In this document: in pieces, positions 34,205 through 53,113 of the stretch
Layout: every line of letters starts with the position of its first letter
Numbering within the stretch: position 1 is the stretch's first letter
Assembly: GCA_963662945.1 (NCBI GenBank)
Contig: OY759974.1
Span: forward strand, 896,001 to 960,000
DNA: 64,000 bases
Source of the DNA: Arcobacteraceae bacterium
Lineage (GTDB): Bacteria > Campylobacterota > Campylobacteria > Campylobacterales > Arcobacteraceae
Direction of reading: 5' to 3'
The notes under the pieces: generated by a model
What the model was told of the DNA's origin: nothing
What the model saw: the letters and a program-made list of their open reading frames with translations, nothing else
Database searches by the model: none
Position numbers and translations under genes: made by a program

Positions 34205-34384
34205 TTAATTCCTTTAATCATTTTGATATTATATTAAAAAAGTGATAATAAATTATAAAAGAAAAATATTAATATAATATGAATTAAAAAGAAATCGAAA
34301 AAGATTAACAAAAAAAGAAAATAAAAAAGCCAAAGGAGGCATAAAAGCTTCCAAAAAGAAGTAAAAAAAAGAGACACCTTAAAA

Positions 34385-34500
34385 GTTGGCAGCGACCTAC
34401 GTTTCCACCAGGGGACCCGGCAGTATTATCGGCGATGGAGAGCTTGACTACCAGGTTCGAAATGGGGCTGGGTATTTCCTCTCCTCTATAACCACCAACA
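34385..34500 (-). rRNA. rrf: 5S rRNA
   Basis: Conserved 5S sequence (CCATTTCGAAC, CGCCGATAATACTG, GGAAACGTAGGTCGCTGCCA) on the minus strand; ends approximate. Confidence 0.95.
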
Positions 34501-34626
34501 TTTAAAATGTCTCATTTAAAAGTTGTGTATAAAGTAATACAGTTAAAGTCTTTGTTCTAAAGTAAAAATACATTCTAAATATATCTTATTACATTTAATA
34601 AGATAGTAAACTAAAGATAATCTTAT

Positions 34627-37508
<2,882 letters not shown>

Positions 37509-37756
37509 GATAAATTAAAGAAGAATTTGTATTATTGCTAATACAGTTCTTTTTTGCTTTGTTATGATTATTCTTTAGCTACTATCTTATTAAATGTAAC
37601 TTCAATAAAATAATATTTAAAATTGTATTTTTATTTTCTTTAGAAAAATAAAGACTTTAACAGTATGTTTTTAAATAACTCTTTGATCTCTTTTGAAATC
37701 AAATATTAATTCTACAATTAGAACTAATATTTAACTTCTTCTGTATCTCTTTCCTA

Positions 37757-37832
37757 TGGTGGAGAATAGCGGGATCGAACCGCTGACCTCCTACGTGCAA
37801 GGCAGGCGCTCTCCCAGCTGAGCTAATTCCCC
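37757..37832 (-). tRNA. tRNA-Ala(TGC)
   Basis: GGGGAATTAGCTCAG...TTGCAC...CCA in the 16S-23S spacer. Confidence 0.97.
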
Positions 37833-37833
37833 A

Positions 37834-37910
37834 TGGTGGGCCTAACAGGACTTGAACCTGTGACCTCACGATTATCAGTCGAGCGCTCTAGCCAGCTGAG
37901 CTATAGGCCC
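37834..37910 (-). tRNA. tRNA-Ile(GAT)
   Basis: GGGCCTATAGCTCAG...CTGATAA...CCA in the 16S-23S spacer. Confidence 0.97.
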
Positions 37911-38158
37911 ATGAATACTTAGTTAATAATGATCTCTCATTATTGACTAGGATGTTTTAACATCTTTGTTAATAAATAATGTTCTGTTCTTTTAAGATTA
38001 TTCATATAATCTTTATAAACTAGATAGCAAGATGTCTTTATGAGATTAAAGAACTTTCGTCTCGATGTTGTACTATTTTTTACATCAATTTGTTATATCT
38101 TATTATATAACTTTTTATTCATTGAACTCAACTAAACGAATAGTTAAGTTATATCTTT

Positions 38159-39676
<1,518 letters not shown>

Positions 39677-40031
39677 AAATAAGCATTTCTACTTATTGGT
39701 TTGTTTAATCTTGACTTTTAAGTTTTTACCTAAAAATCACTGAATCTATTTAAAGATTCAATTATATTTATTTGTTTTTAGTTTTAAAACTAAAACTCAT
39801 AAAGTTTATAGACGAAGTTTATCAAATATAAATTACTCTATATTTAATTCTTCTTGTATCTAGTTTATAAAGATTACTTCTCAGTAATTTAAATAAACTT
39901 GATTTTATTTATTAACATTATTTTTTTTAAAGAACTTTTCCTAATTAATTTTTCTCTCTTCTTGAAGTTATTGAATCTAAACAACCCGTTTATACTCTCT
40001 TCTTAAAGTGTCTTACTTTAATTGGACGCGA

Positions 40032-40611: not shown

Positions 40612-42812
40612 AGTTTTATAACCTTTGCTCCATACCCACCCTCTTTTGCTGTTGCATCATTATAACTTTTTATACTTGGATGAGTATCTAAAAATTGTTT
40701 CACCGCATAAGCAAGTTTTCCTGTTCCTATTCCATGATATACTAAAACCTCATCAAATCCAGCAATTAAACTATCAGAAAGAAATTTATCTAAATTTTCA
40801 ATAGCTTCTTCTGCTCTTTGCCCATGTAAATCTAACTTCACATGTCCTGTTTGAGGCTTTTGGATATCTATTTTAACATTTTTAGGTTTTACTCTTGGTA
40901 TATTACCACTTCTTTTTAAACTTGATAAAGGAAGTTGTAATTTCATACCATCATTGGTCTCAACCATTGCTTTTTTCCCTTTGATTGATATAATGACACC
41001 TTTTGTATTATTATATTTTACAGTATCTCCAACTTTTAAATCTAATGGTTCTTCTACTTTTTCAACTTTAATTTGCTGTTTTTTTGTATGAACTTTATTT
41101 AAAATTCGATGTTGCTCTTTTGAATCATTTAATTTAACAGCTTTTTTTACTTCTTCAATGGCTTCTTTATATTCTTGTTCTAACTTATTTTTCTTTGCTA
41201 AAACTTCTTTATCTAAATTCTCTTTTTGTTCTTTTAAATTTTGCTCTAGTCTATTATTCTTTTCAATTTTTTCATCAAGTTGTTGTATCTTTTGTTTATA
41301 TTCTCTTTCAAGATCACTACTTCTTTGTATTAAATCATTTAATTTATCTTTATCTTCACCATAAACTTCTTTTGCTTTTTTTACAACACCTACAGGAATA
41401 TTATATCTTTGAGCAGTTTCAAAAGCATAACTTCTCCCGATTGTTCCTTGTAAAAACTCATAAGTTGGTTTTCTATTTTCTTCATCATAAAGTGCAGCTA
41501 TCAAATCTACTTCAGGATTTGAAGCTAATAAAGATGCTAATCTTTTATGATGTGTTGTCACAATGATTTTTATATTTTTACTTATAAGTTCTTCAATGAT
41601 AACTTTAAATAAACTCGCTGCTTCATCACTATCTGTTCCTAACTCAATTTCATCAACACCAACTATTGCATTTTGTTTTGTAAAAAGTTTACTAAACTCA
41701 ACCATACGACCAGCAAATGTTGAAATATCATTTTTCACATTTTGTGGATCATCCAAAATTGCATTGATATCTTTATAACTACCAACAACACTTGATTTAT
41801 CACAACTATATGGAATAAGATATTTTGACATATAAACAGCACTTAAAATTGATTTTAGAAGCATCGTTTTTCCACCAGCATTTACACCAGTAATCATAAT
41901 AACATTTTTCGTGAAATCTACAGTCACACTTTTTGCATGTTCTAACGCAGGATGTTTGAAATTAACTAGTTTTTGTATTTTATTAGCTTTATTTGATGGT
42001 AATATAAAATTAAGATTTTTATGTTTTGCAAAATGTATTCTTGCCTGATAATGGTCATATCTATCAAACTCTTTATTGATAAATCTTAAAAACATAAGAT
42101 GTTTTGATAATAAAAAACTAAATTCTTGAGTGATTTTATAAAGAATTTCATCCTTGAGATTAATCAAATCAGATTGTTTTTGTTTTAATTCACTCACACT
42201 ATGTGGCAATACATAAAAAAATCCACTTTGACTTCTATCTAATACTTTACATTGTAATACATGATTAAATCCAGCTCGTACCATCAAAGTTTGTTCCCCA
42301 TGAACTAAGTGTACTTGATGATCAACTAAATATGGTTGTAAATTTTTACTATTTATTACCCCATAAAGTTTTTGCTTAATAGCATCTCTATTTGTATATA
42401 AACTTTGATTTACCCTATCTAAATCTTCATCAAATCCGGATAACAGTTCACCCTTATCATCAAATGCATAAATAATTTTATCTAATTCATTAGGAATAAT
42501 AATTTTTTCAATCCACGATTCTAATTTTCCACTAAAAGTGAATTTCTTAAGATATGAAAAAAAAGTAATAATTTTTACAAATTCATATATCTCATAGATT
42601 TTTATATTACCTTGCTTTTGCAAATAATTTAATGCACTATCCAAATTATCTATTTTTTGTGGAGTTTTTAACTCAAAATTTTCTAATTCACTTAAAATTG
42701 TATGATGAAGGTTTATATCACCTTCTAAAATAACGCTTTTTTCTCTACAAAACAAAGACTGTAGATTTTCTATATGATTTACTATATCAAGTTTTTTTAC
42801 TAAATTTTCCAA
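40608..42812 (-). CDS. mutS2: Endonuclease MutS2
   Basis: ITGVNAGGKT, ISTFAGRM, DEIELGTD, TTHH; C-terminal Smr domain LDLHG...YHGIGTG. Confidence 0.96.
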   Translation of the reverse strand: MENLVKKLDIVNHIENLQSLFCREKSVILEGDINLHHTILSELENFELKTPQKIDNLDSALNYLQKQGNIKIYEIYEFVKIITFFSYLKKFTFSGKLESWIEKIIIPNELDKIIYAFDDKGELLSGFDEDLDRVNQSLYTNRDAIKQKLYGVINSKNLQPYLVDHQVHLVHGEQTLMVRAGFNHVLQCKVLDRSQSGFFYVLPHSVSELKQKQSDLINLKDEILYKITQEFSFLLSKHLMFLRFINKEFDRYDHYQARIHFAKHKNLNFILPSNKANKIQKLVNFKHPALEHAKSVTVDFTKNVIMITGVNAGGKTMLLKSILSAVYMSKYLIPYSCDKSSVVGSYKDINAILDDPQNVKNDISTFAGRMVEFSKLFTKQNAIVGVDEIELGTDSDEAASLFKVIIEELISKNIKIIVTTHHKRLASLLASNPEVDLIAALYDEENRKPTYEFLQGTIGRSYAFETAQRYNIPVGVVKKAKEVYGEDKDKLNDLIQRSSDLEREYKQKIQQLDEKIEKNNRLEQNLKEQKENLDKEVLAKKNKLEQEYKEAIEEVKKAVKLNDSKEQHRILNKVHTKKQQIKVEKVEEPLDLKVGDTVKYNNTKGVIISIKGKKAMVETNDGMKLQLPLSSLKRSGNIPRVKPKNVKIDIQKPQTGHVKLDLHGQRAEEAIENLDKFLSDSLIAGFDEVLVYHGIGTGKLAYAVKQFLDTHPSIKSYNDATAKEGGYGAKVIKL

Positions 42813-43824
42813 TGTTCAACTTCGGCTTTATAATTTTTTTCTCTGGTATTTGTTTTTGTTTTGAATTTCTAAGTTCTGTATCTAGATTAATCTCTTCTCC
42901 AAATACTTCTCTTTCTTTAAATTCTTCAACTAAAGATTCCAACAATTTTATACTAAATTCTGGTATATAATTATTTATTTTATAACTTTCTTCACTTATT
43001 GTTAGAATCTTAACATCTTTATTGCTATCAATATCATTTTGATAAACATATCCATAACTTTTTCTGATTTTTAACAACTCTTCTTTTATCGCTGGATGTA
43101 AATAATATAGTTTTGACATATTCGTTTCTATTCTATAGTTACTATTGTCAAAATCTATTAACTCCCATTTTAGATTAAGTATCTTTTTTTTCTTTTTACC
43201 ATGTATTAAAAAAAGAAAAAATGATATTACAAGCGGTTTGTTATGAAATAAAATATTAACAACATCATATATTTCTGTTATTTTTTCTTGTATCAATTTA
43301 ACATATTGTTTTTCTTGTGCATATTTGAAATTAAGTTTTTTACAAGGACTCAATAGAATTAAATTTTTTTGTACTGCATAATCAAAAACGCGTATTATAA
43401 AATCAGAGGTTATTTTATAAACACTCAATTTAAAATGATTTTGTTGTTTACTGAAAATATGTTTAATATCTTCTTCTGTAATAACTTCAATAGGAATCAT
43501 ACCTAAATAATTTTTAATATATTTTTCATAATATCTTTTTTCTATAAAATCAGCAACATCATGAAACTCAACATATTTACTAATAAAATCATCAAATGTT
43601 AATTGTTCTTTTTGTATTAATTGTTTATTCTTGTTTTTTTCTTTTTGTAATGTAGCTTTTGCTACTGATATTTTCATGTCAGAAGTCCACTTTTTTTGTG
43701 AAAAATCTAATGTACCTTCTATATACTCATCTAAATCTTTAAACTTATAATAAAAGAGGGAAGTGTTTTCATCACACCACAACTCTTCAGTTAATTGCTT
43801 AGTAAAATATGATTTATTATCCAT
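42787..43824 (-). CDS. Tyrosine-recombinase (phage integrase-like) homolog lacking recognisable catalytic residues
   Basis: Core-binding-like YEKYIKNYLG...ITEEDI...VFDYAVQKNLILLSPC; box I-like FLFLIHGKKKKKILNLKWELIDF; no HxxR or catalytic Tyr box. Confidence 0.65.
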   Translation of the reverse strand: MDNKSYFTKQLTEELWCDENTSLFYYKFKDLDEYIEGTLDFSQKKWTSDMKISVAKATLQKEKNKNKQLIQKEQLTFDDFISKYVEFHDVADFIEKRYYEKYIKNYLGMIPIEVITEEDIKHIFSKQQNHFKLSVYKITSDFIIRVFDYAVQKNLILLSPCKKLNFKYAQEKQYVKLIQEKITEIYDVVNILFHNKPLVISFFLFLIHGKKKKKILNLKWELIDFDNSNYRIETNMSKLYYLHPAIKEELLKIRKSYGYVYQNDIDSNKDVKILTISEESYKINNYIPEFSIKLLESLVEEFKEREVFGEEINLDTELRNSKQKQIPEKKIIKPKLNIGKFSKKT

Positions 43825-43834
43825 TTTTATTTAA

Positions 43835-44440
43835 TTAATCTTTATTCTTATTAATAAAAATTGCTAAAGAAACTCTATCTTTCACTTTTAATTTTGTAAA
43901 TATATTACCAATATGTTTTTTTACAGTTACCAACTGTATATCTAATTGCTTAGATATCTCTTTATTCGAATCTCCCTTAGCAACCAACTGAGCAACTTCT
44001 AATTCTTTTGATGAAAGCACTGATAATTTCTTTTTATCTATTTGTTTTTCCGTATCAACAGTTATATTTTTTATTATATAATTCATCAATTCTGGATAAA
44101 GCCAAACATTTCCTTCTTGGACAGTTTTTAAAACTTCTTTTACAATAATCTTACTTGTTTTTTTACCAATATAACTCTTGCATCCTTTTTTGATCATCAA
44201 AGTACCATGAGCTAATCTTGGTACTTCTACTAAAGCTATAATATTTAATAATTTGGATACATTATCAATGTAAAAAAGTGTTTGTTCAACTGTTTTAAAA
44301 TTATCTAGGTCTAGAACTAAAATATCATTAGTTTGAAAATTCTTCTCGTCTAGATAAAAATCTTCTTCAACCACTCTTGCTTCAAACTCATTTGTCCAAT
44401 AATTTTTGATGATTTCTTGTTGTGAATAAATATAAATCAT
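43835..44440 (-). CDS. NarL/LuxR-family regulator with an atypical receiver domain
   Basis: C-terminal HTH LSSKELEVAQLVAKGDSNKEISKQLDIQLVTVKKHIGNIFTKL. Confidence 0.9.
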   Translation of the reverse strand: MIYIYSQQEIIKNYWTNEFEARVVEEDFYLDEKNFQTNDILVLDLDNFKTVEQTLFYIDNVSKLLNIIALVEVPRLAHGTLMIKKGCKSYIGKKTSKIIVKEVLKTVQEGNVWLYPELMNYIIKNITVDTEKQIDKKKLSVLSSKELEVAQLVAKGDSNKEISKQLDIQLVTVKKHIGNIFTKLKVKDRVSLAIFINKNKD

Positions 44441-44441
44441 T

Positions 44442-46259
44442 TTATTCCTTCTGTGTTGTTTTTAGTATTGGTTTCAGTAAAAATGACATGATACTTTTCT
44501 TACCAACTAAAACATCTGCATTTACCATCATACCAACTTTTATCTTATACTTTTCATTATCTAAAAGATAATTCTTTTTTGTTTTTACATAAATCATATA
44601 AAAACTATCCCCTGTATCTTCATCCACAATAGTATCTGGACTTATATTAGTTATTTTTCCTTCTAAATCTCCATAAATAGAATAATCAAATGCAGTTACT
44701 TTTAATTTTACTGTTTGACCTACATGTAATTTAGCTATCTCTTCAGGTTTAATTTTCACTTCTGCTACCATCTCATAATTGTCTGGTACAATTGTTATGA
44801 TATCAGCTGATGGTTCAATAGAACTTCCTACTGTATGCACAAAAATTTCTTTTACAACTCCATCTACTGGCGAACGAATTACCGTTCTTGCTATAATATC
44901 TTCTAGATTTTTTTTAGTTTCTTCTAGTCTTAATAATTCTGCAATCGTTTCATTTAATTGTAATGCTGATTTATTTTTAAATGTTAATTTTGTTTCCTCA
45001 ATACCATTTTTTATCTCTTGAATTTGAGCATCACTTTGTTTTATAACTTCTTGTGCACTTCTTAATGCTCCTCTTGAATCATTAAGCTCTCTTTCTAATT
45101 GATTTAATTCATATTTTGTAAATATTTTTTTTGCTTCTAATGCTTTTTTTGCTTTAAATTCTTCTTCGAGAGTAATTAAATTTTCTTTTAATACATCGTA
45201 CTTATTTTGTGCATCTACTAAAACACTCTCTTGATATTTTAGTTGTTCTAATTGTTTAGATATATTTTGTTGTAATTCTTGTTGATTTGATAAAAAATAA
45301 TGTTTTTCATTTTCAATCATACTATTATCACATTCACCATTACAAACTATTTTTTGCATAGGAAGATCGTCTATCTCTGCCATCAATCTAGATCTTTTAA
45401 CTTTCAATTCCATTATTCTAATATGATTTTCTTCTAGCTTACTTTTATAAGATATGGGACTCAATTTTACTAATATTTGTCCTTTTTTAATGCTATCACC
45501 TTCTTTTACGTAAATATGCGAGACCACTCCCCCTTCGAGATTTTTAAGTTTTTGTACTTTTGAAGTTGGAATAAATTGACCTTGTCCCCGCGCAATTTCA
45601 TCTATATCAAAACTCACTGCATATATTAAAAATAAGAAGATAAAACCTACAACAATTTTTACCACTAAACTTACTTTATTTGAGACTGTATCCAATACAG
45701 CGGCGCTAGTACTGGATACAAAACTTAGTGTAGAATCATGATACTTTTCTTGTGACATCATTTTGACTTGTAATTTATGGAGTAATCTTTGACAGGATAT
45801 ATCATGAATGACAAAAATAAATCCACTTAATTCATTATCTATGAATAGTGGATTTATAATAGTTTTAGTAAAAATCTCTTTATTATCTACTGTCGTTAAA
45901 ACAAGTTCCGTACCCCAAGATTCTTGGTCATGGTTTTTTACATATTCGCAACCATTATAAAATTTTTCTGCATACTCTGGTGAAACTATAAAAGTAAAAC
46001 TTTTATTTGTAAAAGTTGCATTATTATAGCCAAAAAGATCACTAAAAGCTTTGCTTACAGACTTGACTGACAAATTTTTATCTACTGTACATGAAATCAT
46101 ATTTTCATCAGCAATAGTATTGAAGTCATTCATTTGCCGTAAAGTATCTTCATCTATCAAACTAGCTAACTTACTATGACTCTCTTTAGCTGCTAATTCT
46201 TTTTCAAGTTTTTCAATCTTTAAATTAAGATTTTCTACTATTATCTCTTGACTATTCAT
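44442..46259 (-). CDS. HlyD-family T1SS periplasmic adaptor with an N-terminal PAS domain
   Basis: C-part: IDEIARGQG, NLEGGVV, IRSPVDGVV, AFDYSIYG, KVGM; N-part: VDKNL..KSVSKAFSDLFGY...GFIFVIHDIS. Confidence 0.9.
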   Translation of the reverse strand: MNSQEIIVENLNLKIEKLEKELAAKESHSKLASLIDEDTLRQMNDFNTIADENMISCTVDKNLSVKSVSKAFSDLFGYNNATFTNKSFTFIVSPEYAEKFYNGCEYVKNHDQESWGTELVLTTVDNKEIFTKTIINPLFIDNELSGFIFVIHDISCQRLLHKLQVKMMSQEKYHDSTLSFVSSTSAAVLDTVSNKVSLVVKIVVGFIFLFLIYAVSFDIDEIARGQGQFIPTSKVQKLKNLEGGVVSHIYVKEGDSIKKGQILVKLSPISYKSKLEENHIRIMELKVKRSRLMAEIDDLPMQKIVCNGECDNSMIENEKHYFLSNQQELQQNISKQLEQLKYQESVLVDAQNKYDVLKENLITLEEEFKAKKALEAKKIFTKYELNQLERELNDSRGALRSAQEVIKQSDAQIQEIKNGIEETKLTFKNKSALQLNETIAELLRLEETKKNLEDIIARTVIRSPVDGVVKEIFVHTVGSSIEPSADIITIVPDNYEMVAEVKIKPEEIAKLHVGQTVKLKVTAFDYSIYGDLEGKITNISPDTIVDEDTGDSFYMIYVKTKKNYLLDNEKYKIKVGMMVNADVLVGKKSIMSFLLKPILKTTQKE

Positions 46260-50362: not shown

Positions 50363-53113
50363 CTACATACCTTTTATTAACAAATACATATTTAATTTAT
50401 TATTATCTAAAGAGATACCTAAATCAAACACTTTATATGATTCAGTCTTTGCAAGAGTTTCAACGATTTCGTCTTTATTCACTTGAAGAGTAATTTTTTT
50501 ATTTGTATTTTTTGATACTATATCCCCTAATGATAATAAAATTTGCTTTGAAATATCATGTAAACCATTATCAATCGTTTCTACAATATCTCCATCTGTA
50601 TCATCAATCATAATATTAAATATTTTAGACAAAGTTTTTGCTGGAATAAAAAACTTCCAATCAACATTTTTGCTACCATTTGCCACTAAACTATTAGTAA
50701 ATAATACCCCATTCATATTTTTAATATTCTGATGATAAATTTGTTCTATCTGAATCTTCTCCAACGTCGTTTCTAAGATATTATTTAATGTTGTTAATAA
50801 AGAATCTTGTATTAAAGTATATGGGTCTAATTTCGCTTTTTCTGCTTTTGAAGTTACTTTTTTTTGAATTTTAATAGGAGTTGCAATCACGTTATTAATA
50901 GTTTTGGCTTCAGATTGAACTAACTCCTTTTTTTCTTCCCCAATCTCTGTTTTTTTTATATCTTCCACAACTTCTTCATCTTTTAACTGTTCGACATCTA
51001 CTGTTTTACCAAAATATTCATAAGGAACAATCTCCTTATTTTCAACAATCATATTTACAAAAGGAATCAAGTCTTTATCTAGTCTTGTATATATTTCAAT
51101 TATATCTTGAGCAAATATTATACTTATTTTAAAGACATTCTCAAGTTTAGACAGATCTCTTTTTGTTATCTCTTTTATCTCTGATTGTGTGTATTTTCCA
51201 TTTTGTAAATCATGGAATTTTTTTTGATTTATTATATTACACATATTTATAGACAAGGTATAAATAAATTCTTTTGCTGTATCTACTACATCTTTATTCA
51301 TCTCATCTACTAACTCAAACTTATTATCACTTATTAAATTTAAGATTTTATATGAAGATATACAAGAGATATAAAAATTCCATTTTGATTCTATATCTTT
51401 AAATTTTAATAGACCATCAACTTCAACCATTTTTTCTCTTGGAATTGAATTTGAATCAATAGCTTCGATATTAATATTTACTAGTTTTTCTGAACTTAAT
51501 TCTTCAATTGTATGTTTGATACCTTCAACAATTTCATAAGAAATATCCGTATTCTTTTTTTCTTCTTCTAATTCTAGTTTTTCATTTATTCGAATATCTT
51601 TTAATAATTCAGCTGTTTCTTTTGATGATTTATAATTCACCAAATCTTGTGTCATATCCACTAAAGCAACTATTATAATTCTCTCTGTAACATGCTTTGA
51701 ATAATCCATTTCATTAAACTTCACTATAAAATGGTGTGGATCGCCGTTTATAGACATAACTACTTTATAAAGTTTTCTTGGATTTTGCAATAAATAGTCA
51801 ATCCAAAATTCTCCATCAATATATTGATCCCATATATAATTTGGTGCTTCATACTTTTCAAAAAGTTCACAAACACATTTATGCTTCTTTTTAAAACCAT
51901 CAAAAGTTCCAAATCTATTGAAAAATCCCATAAATCTATTATTTGCCTTTGTTATTTCTTTTCCATTATGCATAAACATTAGATTTGGTTGCATATTAAA
52001 TAAATTATCTAATTTTTTATCATTAAAATCAAGCTGATCTGTTTTTTCTTTTAAATCTTCATTGATAATTACTAATTCTTCATTTTCTAATTTTAAATCT
52101 TTAAAAACATTTGCCATATATAAATATTTTATGAAAAAGAATATAAGAAATATTGAAATTATAGTCACAATAATATGTGCTTTTTGCATAAAATTCAAAT
52201 CTTGATAATCTATTTCATCAAGTGTTCTAAATATTATTGCTTTTGCTATTATGCTATTATCGAGATTTTTAATATTATATTTAGATATAAGATGATCGCT
52301 TTTCTCATGGACAATATAATTGTTATTATCATCATCACAAAACTCATTTGCATCATTTTGTTTTATCACCCTTAAAAGATAATCATCTGCATTGGAATTT
52401 ACTACATAACAATCATTTATAAAGTTTTTAGAATAAGAAAGTTCTTGTTGTATTATATGAGAATCTCTTTTATTTAATAAAATTACTATTTTATACCCTC
52501 GTTGTGAAAAAATATCAGCTAATGCATCAAAATGTACATTAACTCCAAAATATCCTAAAAAAATATTGTTTTCATCAAAAATTGGTATTTTGTTTGTAAA
52601 TGTTACACCATATTTACTGGTTTGTATTGTAGTATATACTCTTGGATATTTTATTAGATGTTCCATTTGAGGATCATCTTTCACTAAATCATCACCTTTT
52701 AAATTTGTCCAACTCCTTTTAAAACTTTTACCATTAGCATCAATAACTTCTGCTTGAATATCAACATACTCTTTTTTAGTTCTCATCTCTTCAAGTAGTT
52801 TATCCATATCAAGTAAATCTGGATTATTTTGTTTCAATGATTTTTTAATCATAACATTTTTAGACAACGATGATGAAACAAGTAAAGATGTATTAAGCTT
52901 TTCATTAAGCATGACATCAAATTTCTCTAATATATCTTGATCAACTTTTTTATATATTTTATTTTTATATTCTTGTGTTTTTAAAAAATATATATCTTTA
53001 GAAATAAAACCAATAATTAGAATCAAAAATAAAAAAAGCGAAGTATAGATTGTTTTTGTACTAACAACATGATTATTAAGAATTTGTTTCTTGAGTTTTT
53101 TTAGTTTTTTCAT
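50363..53113 (-). CDS. Membrane sensor-like protein: TM, Cache-like, TM, PAS-like, then two CheC/FliY-like domains; no kinase or cyclase output
   Basis: Two hydrophobic segments, SFKRSW..LKGDDL Cache-like region, LFNMQPNL...ANNRFMGFF PAS-like region, duplicated C-terminal domain. Confidence 0.7.
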   Translation of the reverse strand: MKKLKKLKKQILNNHVVSTKTIYTSLFLFLILIIGFISKDIYFLKTQEYKNKIYKKVDQDILEKFDVMLNEKLNTSLLVSSSLSKNVMIKKSLKQNNPDLLDMDKLLEEMRTKKEYVDIQAEVIDANGKSFKRSWTNLKGDDLVKDDPQMEHLIKYPRVYTTIQTSKYGVTFTNKIPIFDENNIFLGYFGVNVHFDALADIFSQRGYKIVILLNKRDSHIIQQELSYSKNFINDCYVVNSNADDYLLRVIKQNDANEFCDDDNNNYIVHEKSDHLISKYNIKNLDNSIIAKAIIFRTLDEIDYQDLNFMQKAHIIVTIISIFLIFFFIKYLYMANVFKDLKLENEELVIINEDLKEKTDQLDFNDKKLDNLFNMQPNLMFMHNGKEITKANNRFMGFFNRFGTFDGFKKKHKCVCELFEKYEAPNYIWDQYIDGEFWIDYLLQNPRKLYKVVMSINGDPHHFIVKFNEMDYSKHVTERIIIVALVDMTQDLVNYKSSKETAELLKDIRINEKLELEEEKKNTDISYEIVEGIKHTIEELSSEKLVNINIEAIDSNSIPREKMVEVDGLLKFKDIESKWNFYISCISSYKILNLISDNKFELVDEMNKDVVDTAKEFIYTLSINMCNIINQKKFHDLQNGKYTQSEIKEITKRDLSKLENVFKISIIFAQDIIEIYTRLDKDLIPFVNMIVENKEIVPYEYFGKTVDVEQLKDEEVVEDIKKTEIGEEKKELVQSEAKTINNVIATPIKIQKKVTSKAEKAKLDPYTLIQDSLLTTLNNILETTLEKIQIEQIYHQNIKNMNGVLFTNSLVANGSKNVDWKFFIPAKTLSKIFNIMIDDTDGDIVETIDNGLHDISKQILLSLGDIVSKNTNKKITLQVNKDEIVETLAKTESYKVFDLGISLDNNKLNMYLLIKGM

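Follow-up and report, generated by a model that had tools for sequence, protein, structure and literature searches.

Does a type I secretion system (T1SS) in this locus carry a sensory domain inside its own membrane adaptor, and could that domain help to decide when the machine secretes? The question is raised by a 605-residue adaptor of the HlyD type encoded in a stretch of 64,000 nucleotides from an Arcobacteraceae bacterium (GenBank assembly GCA_963662945.1, contig OY759974.1, positions 896,001 to 960,000 of the forward strand), which is referred to here as the window. In most accounts the substrate alone drives type I secretion, and the known control of giant adhesins acts after export, via cyclic di-GMP (c-di-GMP), LapD and LapG. 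An earlier note, made from the sequence of the window, had placed a PAS domain ahead of the membrane helix of the adaptor and proposed that it could gate secretion directly or pair with a PAS-like domain of a neighbouring sensor of 916 amino acids (aa). As described below, the PAS domain is real, it belongs to a module inherited with this branch of adaptors, and it may be a regulatory input to the secretion step.

The gene is a type I secretion adaptor of the LssD/LapC type. The NCBIfam model TIGR01843 (type_I_hlyD) scores 330.9 bits over residues 196-604, against a cut-off of 208.65, and the Pfam model HlyD_3 scores 67.2 bits, so the 605-aa HlyD adaptor stands as first described; the segment singled out in the earlier note (45780-46259) corresponds to its codons 1-160. 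With our hydropathy script, the first hydrophobic window of 19 residues opens at residue 192 and belongs to the only such segment, which leaves about 190 residues ahead of the membrane helix, the length that had been estimated. Judging from the family, the N-terminus would be cytoplasmic and the protein would cross the membrane once. The sequence FVIHDIS, said to end the PAS segment, occupies residues 149-155, and the region noted as a coiled coil appears in an AlphaFold2 model as one long predicted helix. This helix varies in length among relatives and is missing from the forms of 561-583 aa (alignment A1).

Profile scores and predicted structure both confirm that the adaptor N-terminus holds a true PAS domain. 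A Pfam scan, suggested in the earlier note as a check, returned PAS_9 (PF13426) on residues 58-155 at E 6.5e-9 and 36.4 bits, above the gathering score of 27, and the NCBIfam model TIGR00229 (sensory_box) matched residues 46-155 at 31 bits (cut-off 22.9). The AlphaFold2 model covers residues 1-230 and was computed from an alignment of 24 sequences drawn from both clades of relatives discussed below; its predicted local distance difference test (pLDDT) score averages 78.6 and reaches 86-92 over residues 50-160. The model consists of a helix (3-53), a PAS core (55-153) with a five-stranded sheet (55-60, 64-68, 115-122, 128-140 and 143-153), a second helix (155-170), a low-confidence linker (177-190) and the membrane helix. 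Foldseek against the PDB gave exclusively PAS/LOV structures as top matches, led by 3lyx (E 5.5e-9, target template modelling score 0.82-0.85, root-mean-square deviation (rmsd) 2.0-2.1 Å) and followed by short LOV proteins, YF1, DosP, NifL, FixL and Aer, and the helix-PAS-helix topology resembles that of short LOV proteins and the YF1 sensor kinase (9vf7, 7r5n, 4gcz). VIA-align agreed, with the PAS-B domains of ARNT/BMAL1 superimposing on model residues 54-155 at Z 17-18 and rmsd 1.1-1.5 Å over 100-102 residues, and 3lyx at Z 16.5 over 116 residues. When PDB sequences were searched with a profile made from the N-terminal alignment, DosP (7.6e-9), Aer, 3lyx, MmoS and YtvA were matched; in DosP the best-scoring stretch lies behind the haem PAS, at chain residues 156-271. 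Queried with the single sequence of the PAS core, phmmer gave no match among the PDB sequences at E <= 0.1.

A PAS domain in the open frame would mean little if translation began downstream of it, at an internal start near the membrane helix, and the PAS frame were a relic. One observation speaks for this: P0074, a clade-2 database representative of 424 aa, has its start called at an internal Met just ahead of the conserved tail motif. However, clade 1 has no Met at that position, and in the window the adaptor ATG follows the TAG stop of the ABC (ATP-binding cassette) transporter gene without a gap. The frame and its PAS Pfam match are kept in both clades down to 27% identity. We also counted nonsynonymous and synonymous differences per site (pN and pS) over PAS codons 55-155 with our own procedure of the Nei-Gojobori type. 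Comparison of the window with four relatives gave pN 0.156-0.183 and pS 0.70-0.94; for a closer pair of relatives (L015 and L016) the corresponding rates were dN 0.032 and dS 1.09; and over all the comparisons pN was 0.03-0.18 against pS of 0.57-0.94. The PAS codons are under strong purifying selection. An internal start is thus very unlikely for this adaptor, contrary to a possibility that the earlier note had left standing, and an untranslated PAS relic is hardly credible.

As far as sampled, the PAS adaptor is confined mainly to one family. Residues 1-195, used as query, retrieved 48 cluster representatives from 978 candidates, one of them that of the window. They are 427-694 aa long, the other 47 have 38-73% identity in the N-terminal region, and PF13426 is annotated on all 48; the presence of PAS and HlyD families on these proteins is thus already recorded by automatic annotation. 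In a sample of 401 genomes from the phylum there were seven matches at E <= 1e-10, all within Arcobacteraceae. Two of these (L012 and L013) were ruled out, being dCache-PAS-GGDEF proteins, which leaves PAS adaptors in 5 of the 401 genomes; none was found in the 377 sampled genomes of other families in the phylum. Within Arcobacteraceae, 36 of 184 genomes, in 9 of 22 genera, match at E <= 1e-12. The adaptor is an open frame of 567-655 aa in 33 of them and is broken by contig ends or masked bases in the other three. These genomes fall into a clade 1 of 21 genomes (36-68% identity to the window N-terminus) and a clade 2 of 15 (27-35%), and PAS_9 together with HlyD_3 was confirmed in all four loci scanned by Pfam, two per clade.

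A tree of the adaptor body was built from the last 425 residues of 91 sequences: the window, nine clade-1 and three clade-2 adaptors, representatives P0055-P0134 minus three fragments, and P0176 (P0135-P0204 fall outside this set). In a quick IQ-TREE run the 19 PAS rows and P0074 form one side of a branch with a Shimodaira-Hasegawa-like approximate likelihood-ratio support of 90.3, and FastTree gave a similar result; P0074 is probably a truncated call. P0176, which carries a PAS_4 fusion, is placed elsewhere. The nearest relative of its PAS_4 domain is the PAS of a histidine kinase (50% identity), and the search for its relatives turned up a single further PAS adaptor. The grouping and the position of P0176 together indicate one main origin plus at least one independent fusion. 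The fusion has accordingly been inherited as one clade of adaptors in Arcobacteraceae, with two deep subdivisions. As a separate and unverified lead, the Atlas lists clusters of 588-607 aa from Pseudomonadota and Thermodesulfobacteriota with PAS families on 85-98% of members (score 0.91), only one of which is automatically named a periplasmic adaptor subunit.

What was added to the adaptor can be seen by comparison with the tails of its neighbours in sequence space. The survey took the best 150 of 18,181 representatives and retained 144 after six fragments and fusions had been dropped. A hydrophobic segment was found in 139 of the 144, starting at a median residue of 34 (10th-90th percentile 19-113), which supports the view that a short cytoplasmic tail is the norm for HlyD adaptors; in 16 of these the start is at residue 100 or beyond. 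Canonical sister adaptors (451-467 aa) keep the motif F/Y-M/V-S-S-L/T-S-A-A-V 25-45 residues from their N-terminus, and because this juxtamembrane motif is retained, the PAS module must have been added in front of a complete canonical tail. What is grafted N-terminal of the conserved tail motif and membrane helix is a helix-PAS-helix module of about 155-170 residues. Among the 30 representatives of at least 496 aa, to which the Pfam scan was confined (120 shorter ones lay outside it), seven contain PAS. One of the seven, P0057 (789 aa), has GAF plus PAS ahead of the membrane helix, in the same place as the PAS of the window. A different architecture is seen in P0115 (1191 aa), a PAS-less long representative, which is a single-chain fusion of ABC transporter and adaptor.

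Conservation within the PAS domain is concentrated in the segment from the F-alpha helix to the G-beta strand (K99-T117, alignment A1). The positions invariant in clade 1 are L63, S69, K99, G103, C104, E105, Y106, W115, G116, I135, P137, G146 and F147, and the F-alpha helix EKFYNGCEYV, which contains C104, is nearly fully fixed in that clade only. Clade 2 has a different F-alpha and no Cys at the position of C104, and the PAS positions invariant in both clades are only S69, Y78, W115, P137, G146 and F147.

The main question then is what the module does. We consider, with a probability of about 0.5, that it is a regulatory input to the secretion machine. The PAS domain would lie under the inner membrane, next to the cytoplasmic domains of the ABC transporter, where it would bind a small signal from the cytoplasm, or another protein, and so respond to a ligand, to the redox state or to that partner. 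Its response would be transmitted by the helix behind it to the conserved tail and membrane helix and would modulate the TolC-recruitment step or assembly of the complex, so that the adhesin would be exported in certain cellular states only. That the module senses something, and is not mere filler, is suggested by the GAF plus PAS arrangement of the sister P0057, by the kinase-type PAS_4 of P0176 and by the concentration of conservation at residues 99-117. If this is true, the adaptor would contain a sensory domain that acts on the secretion step directly and post-translationally.

A preprint (bioRxiv 10.1101/2025.05.27.656419) describes, in the passages used here, the E. coli HlyD tail as contacting HlyB and as needed for substrate-triggered recruitment of TolC. 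The adaptor of the window is like E. coli HlyD in its TIGR01843 membership, its cytoplasmic N-terminus as predicted from the family, its single membrane helix, its periplasmic body and its gene position directly after the ABC partner. It differs in having about 190 residues, including PAS, before the membrane helix, and in serving a giant adhesin instead of a toxin. Since the PAS domain adjoins the tail that couples substrate engagement to TolC recruitment in the HlyD paradigm, the long-discussed role of that tail becomes testable with a natural "switch" variant, and the two canonical adaptors that the same genome encodes in addition to the PAS one are clean comparators. The predicted order of N-terminal helix, PAS core and C-terminal helix leading to the output is also that of short LOV, YF1 and FixL-type proteins (9vf7, 7r5n, 4gcz, 8js6). 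Unlike these, the adaptor has no recognisable flavin or haem motif, and its "output" would be a membrane helix and secretion adaptor and not a kinase. At the level of abstracts and passages, and in the first 300,000 characters of a 2021 Chem Rev review (PMC8277102), we found no paper on a PAS-bearing T1SS adaptor.

Several observations weigh against a regulatory role. No pattern of flavin or haem ligands emerged in the PAS domain when it was aligned to DosP, Aer and YtvA, the residues RHPD of Aer align to VSPE in the adaptor, and no LOV-type Cys motif was seen by eye; assignment of a cofactor from this alignment was rejected because no convincing ligand residues were present. Cys104 is invariant in clade 1 yet absent from clade 2. 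No recognised N-terminal domain was found in 23 of the 30 long representatives, and extension of the tail without PAS is thus common in this adaptor subfamily. PAS domains are among the most promiscuously fused domains, so that presence alone does not show sensing. The PAS-B domains of ARNT and BMAL1 act mainly as protein-protein interaction modules, and since these are the closest solved domains, a structural or docking role is equally compatible with the fold. As to the input itself, one guess is a thiol or redox signal via the clade-1-invariant Cys104 on the F-alpha helix, and another is a signal from the dCache/PAS-like sensor that is co-inherited in clade 1.

The same observations bear on the possibility that the PAS is a structural element that senses nothing: it might dimerise adaptor protomers, or contact the C39-like or nucleotide-binding domains of the ABC transporter or the secretion signal of the adhesin, and so stabilise or assemble the machine. 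Sister adaptors with long domain-less extensions (the 16 of 139 with at least 100 residues before the helix and the 23 of 30 without PAS), the lack of a cofactor motif and the resemblance to protein-interaction PAS-B domains all favour such an element, but the GAF plus PAS variant and the kinase-type PAS, captured independently, suggest signalling modules, and the near invariance of the F-alpha helix in clade 1 also speaks against it. We regard a purely structural role as unlikely; were the PAS merely a scaffold, it would be a modest architectural variant restricted to one bacterial family. Another possibility is that the adaptor PAS offers a handle on which the 916-aa sensor docks with its PAS-like domain, and that a PAS-PAS heterodimer brings periplasmic information to the machine or the state of secretion to the sensor, which in clade 1 would overlap with the regulatory role. 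In the 916-aa protein Pfam finds only weak dCache matches, and the conserved core of its family runs from a dCache_3 domain through a membrane helix into a cytoplasmic domain of some 160 residues, with many members (504-530 aa) ending right there, after the PAS-like domain. The predicted structure of residues 330-530 (pLDDT 76.6) has a long helix and a PAS-like core whose top matches are all PAS/LOV, at moderate strength (Foldseek E 1.7e-4 and weaker; VIA Z 8-9.8, rmsd 3.2-3.7 Å), so that the PAS-like domain first noticed in the sequence holds up as a divergent PAS-like cytoplasmic domain in the predicted structure. No HisKA or HATPase_c domain was found in the whole protein or in three pieces of it at E <= 1, and the sensor part is 29-32% identical (E 1e-17 to 1e-22) to dCache_3-HisKA-HATPase kinases encoded elsewhere in the family. 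Kinase homology without kinase domains makes it look like a kinase that has lost its kinase, and no known output domain takes their place. Orthologues (E <= 1e-30) occur in 19 of the 184 family genomes, namely in 18 of the 21 clade-1 genomes and in one incomplete genome without an adaptor match, and 17 of the 18 clade-1 orthologues are on the same contig as the PAS adaptor; an orthologue is missing from three clade-1 genomes, whose completeness is 78-80% in two cases and 93% in the third (G461). Together with the nearness of the adaptor PAS to heterodimerising PAS-B domains, these points favour docking. However, co-occurrence of sensor and adaptor among kin is not independent evidence, and none of the 15 clade-2 genomes, all of which have the PAS adaptor, contains an orthologue at the same threshold, nor was one present in the four clade-2 loci examined. 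This counts against an obligatory pairing, and the PAS must also work without the sensor. We consider the docking handle quite unlikely.

A further candidate partner is the LuxR-type regulator, which the PAS might tether at the idle transporter and thereby couple secretion to transcription, as in MalK/MalT. In 18 of 19 clade-1 loci and in all four clade-2 loci, the next gene downstream of the adaptor is that of the regulator. The exception, L073, is a contig of 6,520 bases from a metagenome-assembled relative; its ABC gene, upstream of the PAS adaptor, is broken into two frames (197 and 526 aa), and it has no LuxR gene, the adaptor being directly followed by mutS2, either from decay of the locus or from an assembly error. 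A profile of the regulator aligns to VraR, DesR and NarL from about position 40 to 200, no Pfam Response_reg match was obtained, and its receiver-like domain has no acidic pocket: there is no DD pair after the first strand, and the clade-1 residues LDLD are replaced by HHLN or QHLD in clade 2 (alignment A3), where the acceptor position is not conserved. With the acidic pair and a conserved acceptor Asp both missing, the domain is a pseudo-receiver, which would need a non-phosphoryl input, and the LuxR/GerE regulators of these loci are probably locus-specific activators that need no phosphorylation. This is compatible with a tether, but a LuxR paralogue (33% identity over 136 residues, E 3e-25, GerE) is encoded directly downstream of a PAS-less canonical adaptor of 454 aa in the same genome. 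Adjacency of a LuxR gene is thus not specific to PAS, and the tether, downgraded for this reason, is in our opinion very doubtful. The paralogue (at about 1,722,300-1,722,950 of G000:C1) means that a LuxR/GerE regulator with a degenerate receiver trails the adaptor in two of the three T1SS loci of the genome.

The regulatory role can be extended to a signal-gated T1SS in which a redox or metabolite cue from the cytoplasm would act on the PAS domain, and the PAS domain would decide on engagement of TolC and hence on export of the 5,400-residue adhesin. In clade 1 periplasmic cues would be added through PAS-PAS contact with the kinase-less dCache sensor, and the LuxR pseudo-receiver would set transcription, making a phosphorylation-free circuit as an alternative to the c-di-GMP/LapDG logic of the same genome. 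In this full form the proposal is speculative and, as we judge it, distinctly improbable.

The PAS adaptor always has as its partners a dedicated ABC transporter, a peptidoglycan-anchored TolC protein, a giant adhesin and a LuxR-type pseudo-receiver regulator, which make up a consistent and uncommon group. The features of the locus are collected in Table 1.

Table 1. Coordinates of the PAS adaptor, its segments and the neighbouring genes of the secretion locus in the window
Feature	Position	Strand	Evidence
PAS-HlyD, 605-aa type I secretion periplasmic adaptor with (predicted) cytoplasmic PAS extension	44442..46259	-	Open reading frame, ATG start; TIGR01843 and PAS_9
N-terminal long helix, residues 3-53	46101..46253	-	AlphaFold2 secondary structure; alignment A1
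PAS core, residues 55-155	45795..46097	-	Pfam, NCBIfam, AlphaFold2, Foldseek, VIA-align
Post-PAS helix, residues 156-170 (model: 155-170), J-alpha-like position, LLHKLQVKMMSQEK	45750..45794	-	AlphaFold2; conserved in alignment A1
Juxtamembrane tail motif FVSSTSAAVLDTVS, residues 180-193	45681..45722	-	Alignments A1, A2, A5
Single transmembrane helix, about residues 197-217	45609..45671	-	Hydropathy; helix in AlphaFold2 model
Periplasmic HlyD body (lipoyl, helical hairpin, beta-barrel)	44445..45608	-	HlyD_3, HlyD_D23, Biotin_lipoyl_2; TIGR01843
LssB-type type I secretion ABC permease/ATPase, 722 aa	46260..48428	-	TIGR03375, 836.5 bits (cut-off 693.1)
TolC-family outer-membrane protein with N-terminal ZorB/MotB-like OmpA peptidoglycan-binding domain, 640 aa	48440..50362	-	OEP 123 bits, OmpA 28.9 bits
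916-aa membrane sensor: dCache_3-like periplasmic domain, membrane helix, PAS-like domain (about residues 378-486), uncharacterised C-terminal region	50363..53113	-	Pfam, predicted structure
Giant adhesin, C-terminal 3,584 residues of about 5,428 aa	53245..64000 and beyond	-	Open frame; Big_9 and cadherin-like domains
LuxR/GerE regulator, 201 aa, degenerate receiver-like domain, directly downstream of adaptor	43835..44440	-	GerE 65.5 bits; profile; alignment A3

The order adhesin, 916-aa sensor, TolC, ABC, PAS adaptor and LuxR is found in the window and in all four long clade-1 loci. In the clade-2 loci, the LuxR and PAS adaptor genes are on one strand and the TolC, ABC and giant open reading frame (ORF) are on the other, with housekeeping genes on the flanks. 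The window does not reach the adhesin ATG, which would have coordinate 69531 if the numbering were continued (the start was found in L091:2-6532). The gene is about 16.3 kb long and has a G+C content of about 0.34-0.40, against 0.23-0.30 in the neighbouring secretion genes. Over its first 300 residues the adhesin has an acidic, Asn-rich sequence of low complexity, in which inspection by eye revealed no obvious LapA-like retention or di-alanine site. Near the C-terminus there are Gly/Asp-rich motifs of the GAGNDTI type, seen by eye only and without an RTX model score. The TolC-family protein matches the PADLOC ZorB2 model over residues 19-190 (E 7.7e-45) and scores 167 bits with TIGR01844, below the cut-off of 225.15. 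In clade 1 its anchor is the N-terminal ZorB/MotB-like OmpA domain, and in clade 2 it is a C-terminal SPOR domain (L042:10371-12665). The use of a different anchor in each clade points to selection for attachment of the outer-membrane channel to the cell wall.

The C-terminal 400 residues of the 916-aa sensor have no Pfam match in this protein or in seven relatives. The leads for this region are Atlas scores of 0.79-0.86, with CheC/CheX on 11-33% of members in some clusters, and one source that names a relative CheC. The PAS-like domain of the sensor has invariant residues H53, H82, C84, H131 and H132 (numbering of alignment A4).

With its LssB-type ABC transporter and its repeat adhesin of several thousand residues, the locus resembles the LapC/LssD systems (LapA-type, LapBCE), and some public sources name relatives of the adaptor "adhesin transport system membrane fusion protein". 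Unlike the Lap systems it has no LapD or LapG at the locus, its adaptor has a PAS domain, and its TolC protein has a peptidoglycan-binding domain. The Pfam scans found neither LapD/LapG in the operon of the window nor any c-di-GMP domain at the PAS adaptor locus. DvhD of Desulfovibrio is described, in the passages of a preprint considered here (bioRxiv 10.1101/2023.11.22.568322), as having a periplasmic CACHE domain, a cytoplasmic PAS domain and a degenerate output domain, and as acting in a LapD-like manner. A signalling protein built into an adhesin T1SS locus is thus common to LapD, DvhD and the locus of the window, and the 916-aa neighbour shares the layout of DvhD as given in those passages. 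LapD and DvhD are, however, separate proteins that act on a periplasmic protease upon c-di-GMP, whereas here the PAS domain is within the adaptor itself.

Three TIGR01843 adaptors are encoded in the genome, the PAS one and two canonical ones of about 454-463 aa. One canonical system of the adhesin type, at 1,618,000-1,633,000 of G000:C1 (L092), has an adaptor of 462 aa, an ABC transporter of 712 aa and an outer-membrane protein of 530 aa, and adjoins genes for LapD (732 aa) and LapG (215 aa), with an ankyrin-OmpA protein downstream. The PF16448 match and the best PF06035 match are at 1.629-1.630 Mb, about 0.69 Mb from the window locus at 0.94 Mb, and two weaker PF06035 matches lie elsewhere in the genome. 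With LapD and LapG located beside another T1SS, the PAS system has no usual c-di-GMP/LapDG control at its own locus.

Two observations concern the surroundings of the locus. An ORF of 345 aa (42787-43824, minus strand) lies between the LuxR gene and mutS2, with a weak Phage_int_M match of 22.6 bits, below the cut-off. It is absent from relatives L039, L040 and L046, in which mutS2 directly follows LuxR, and is possibly the remnant of an insertion. Downstream of the locus there is a complete rRNA operon (16S, two tRNAs, 23S and 5S; 34384-39677, minus strand), which accounts for the rise in G+C content to 0.42.

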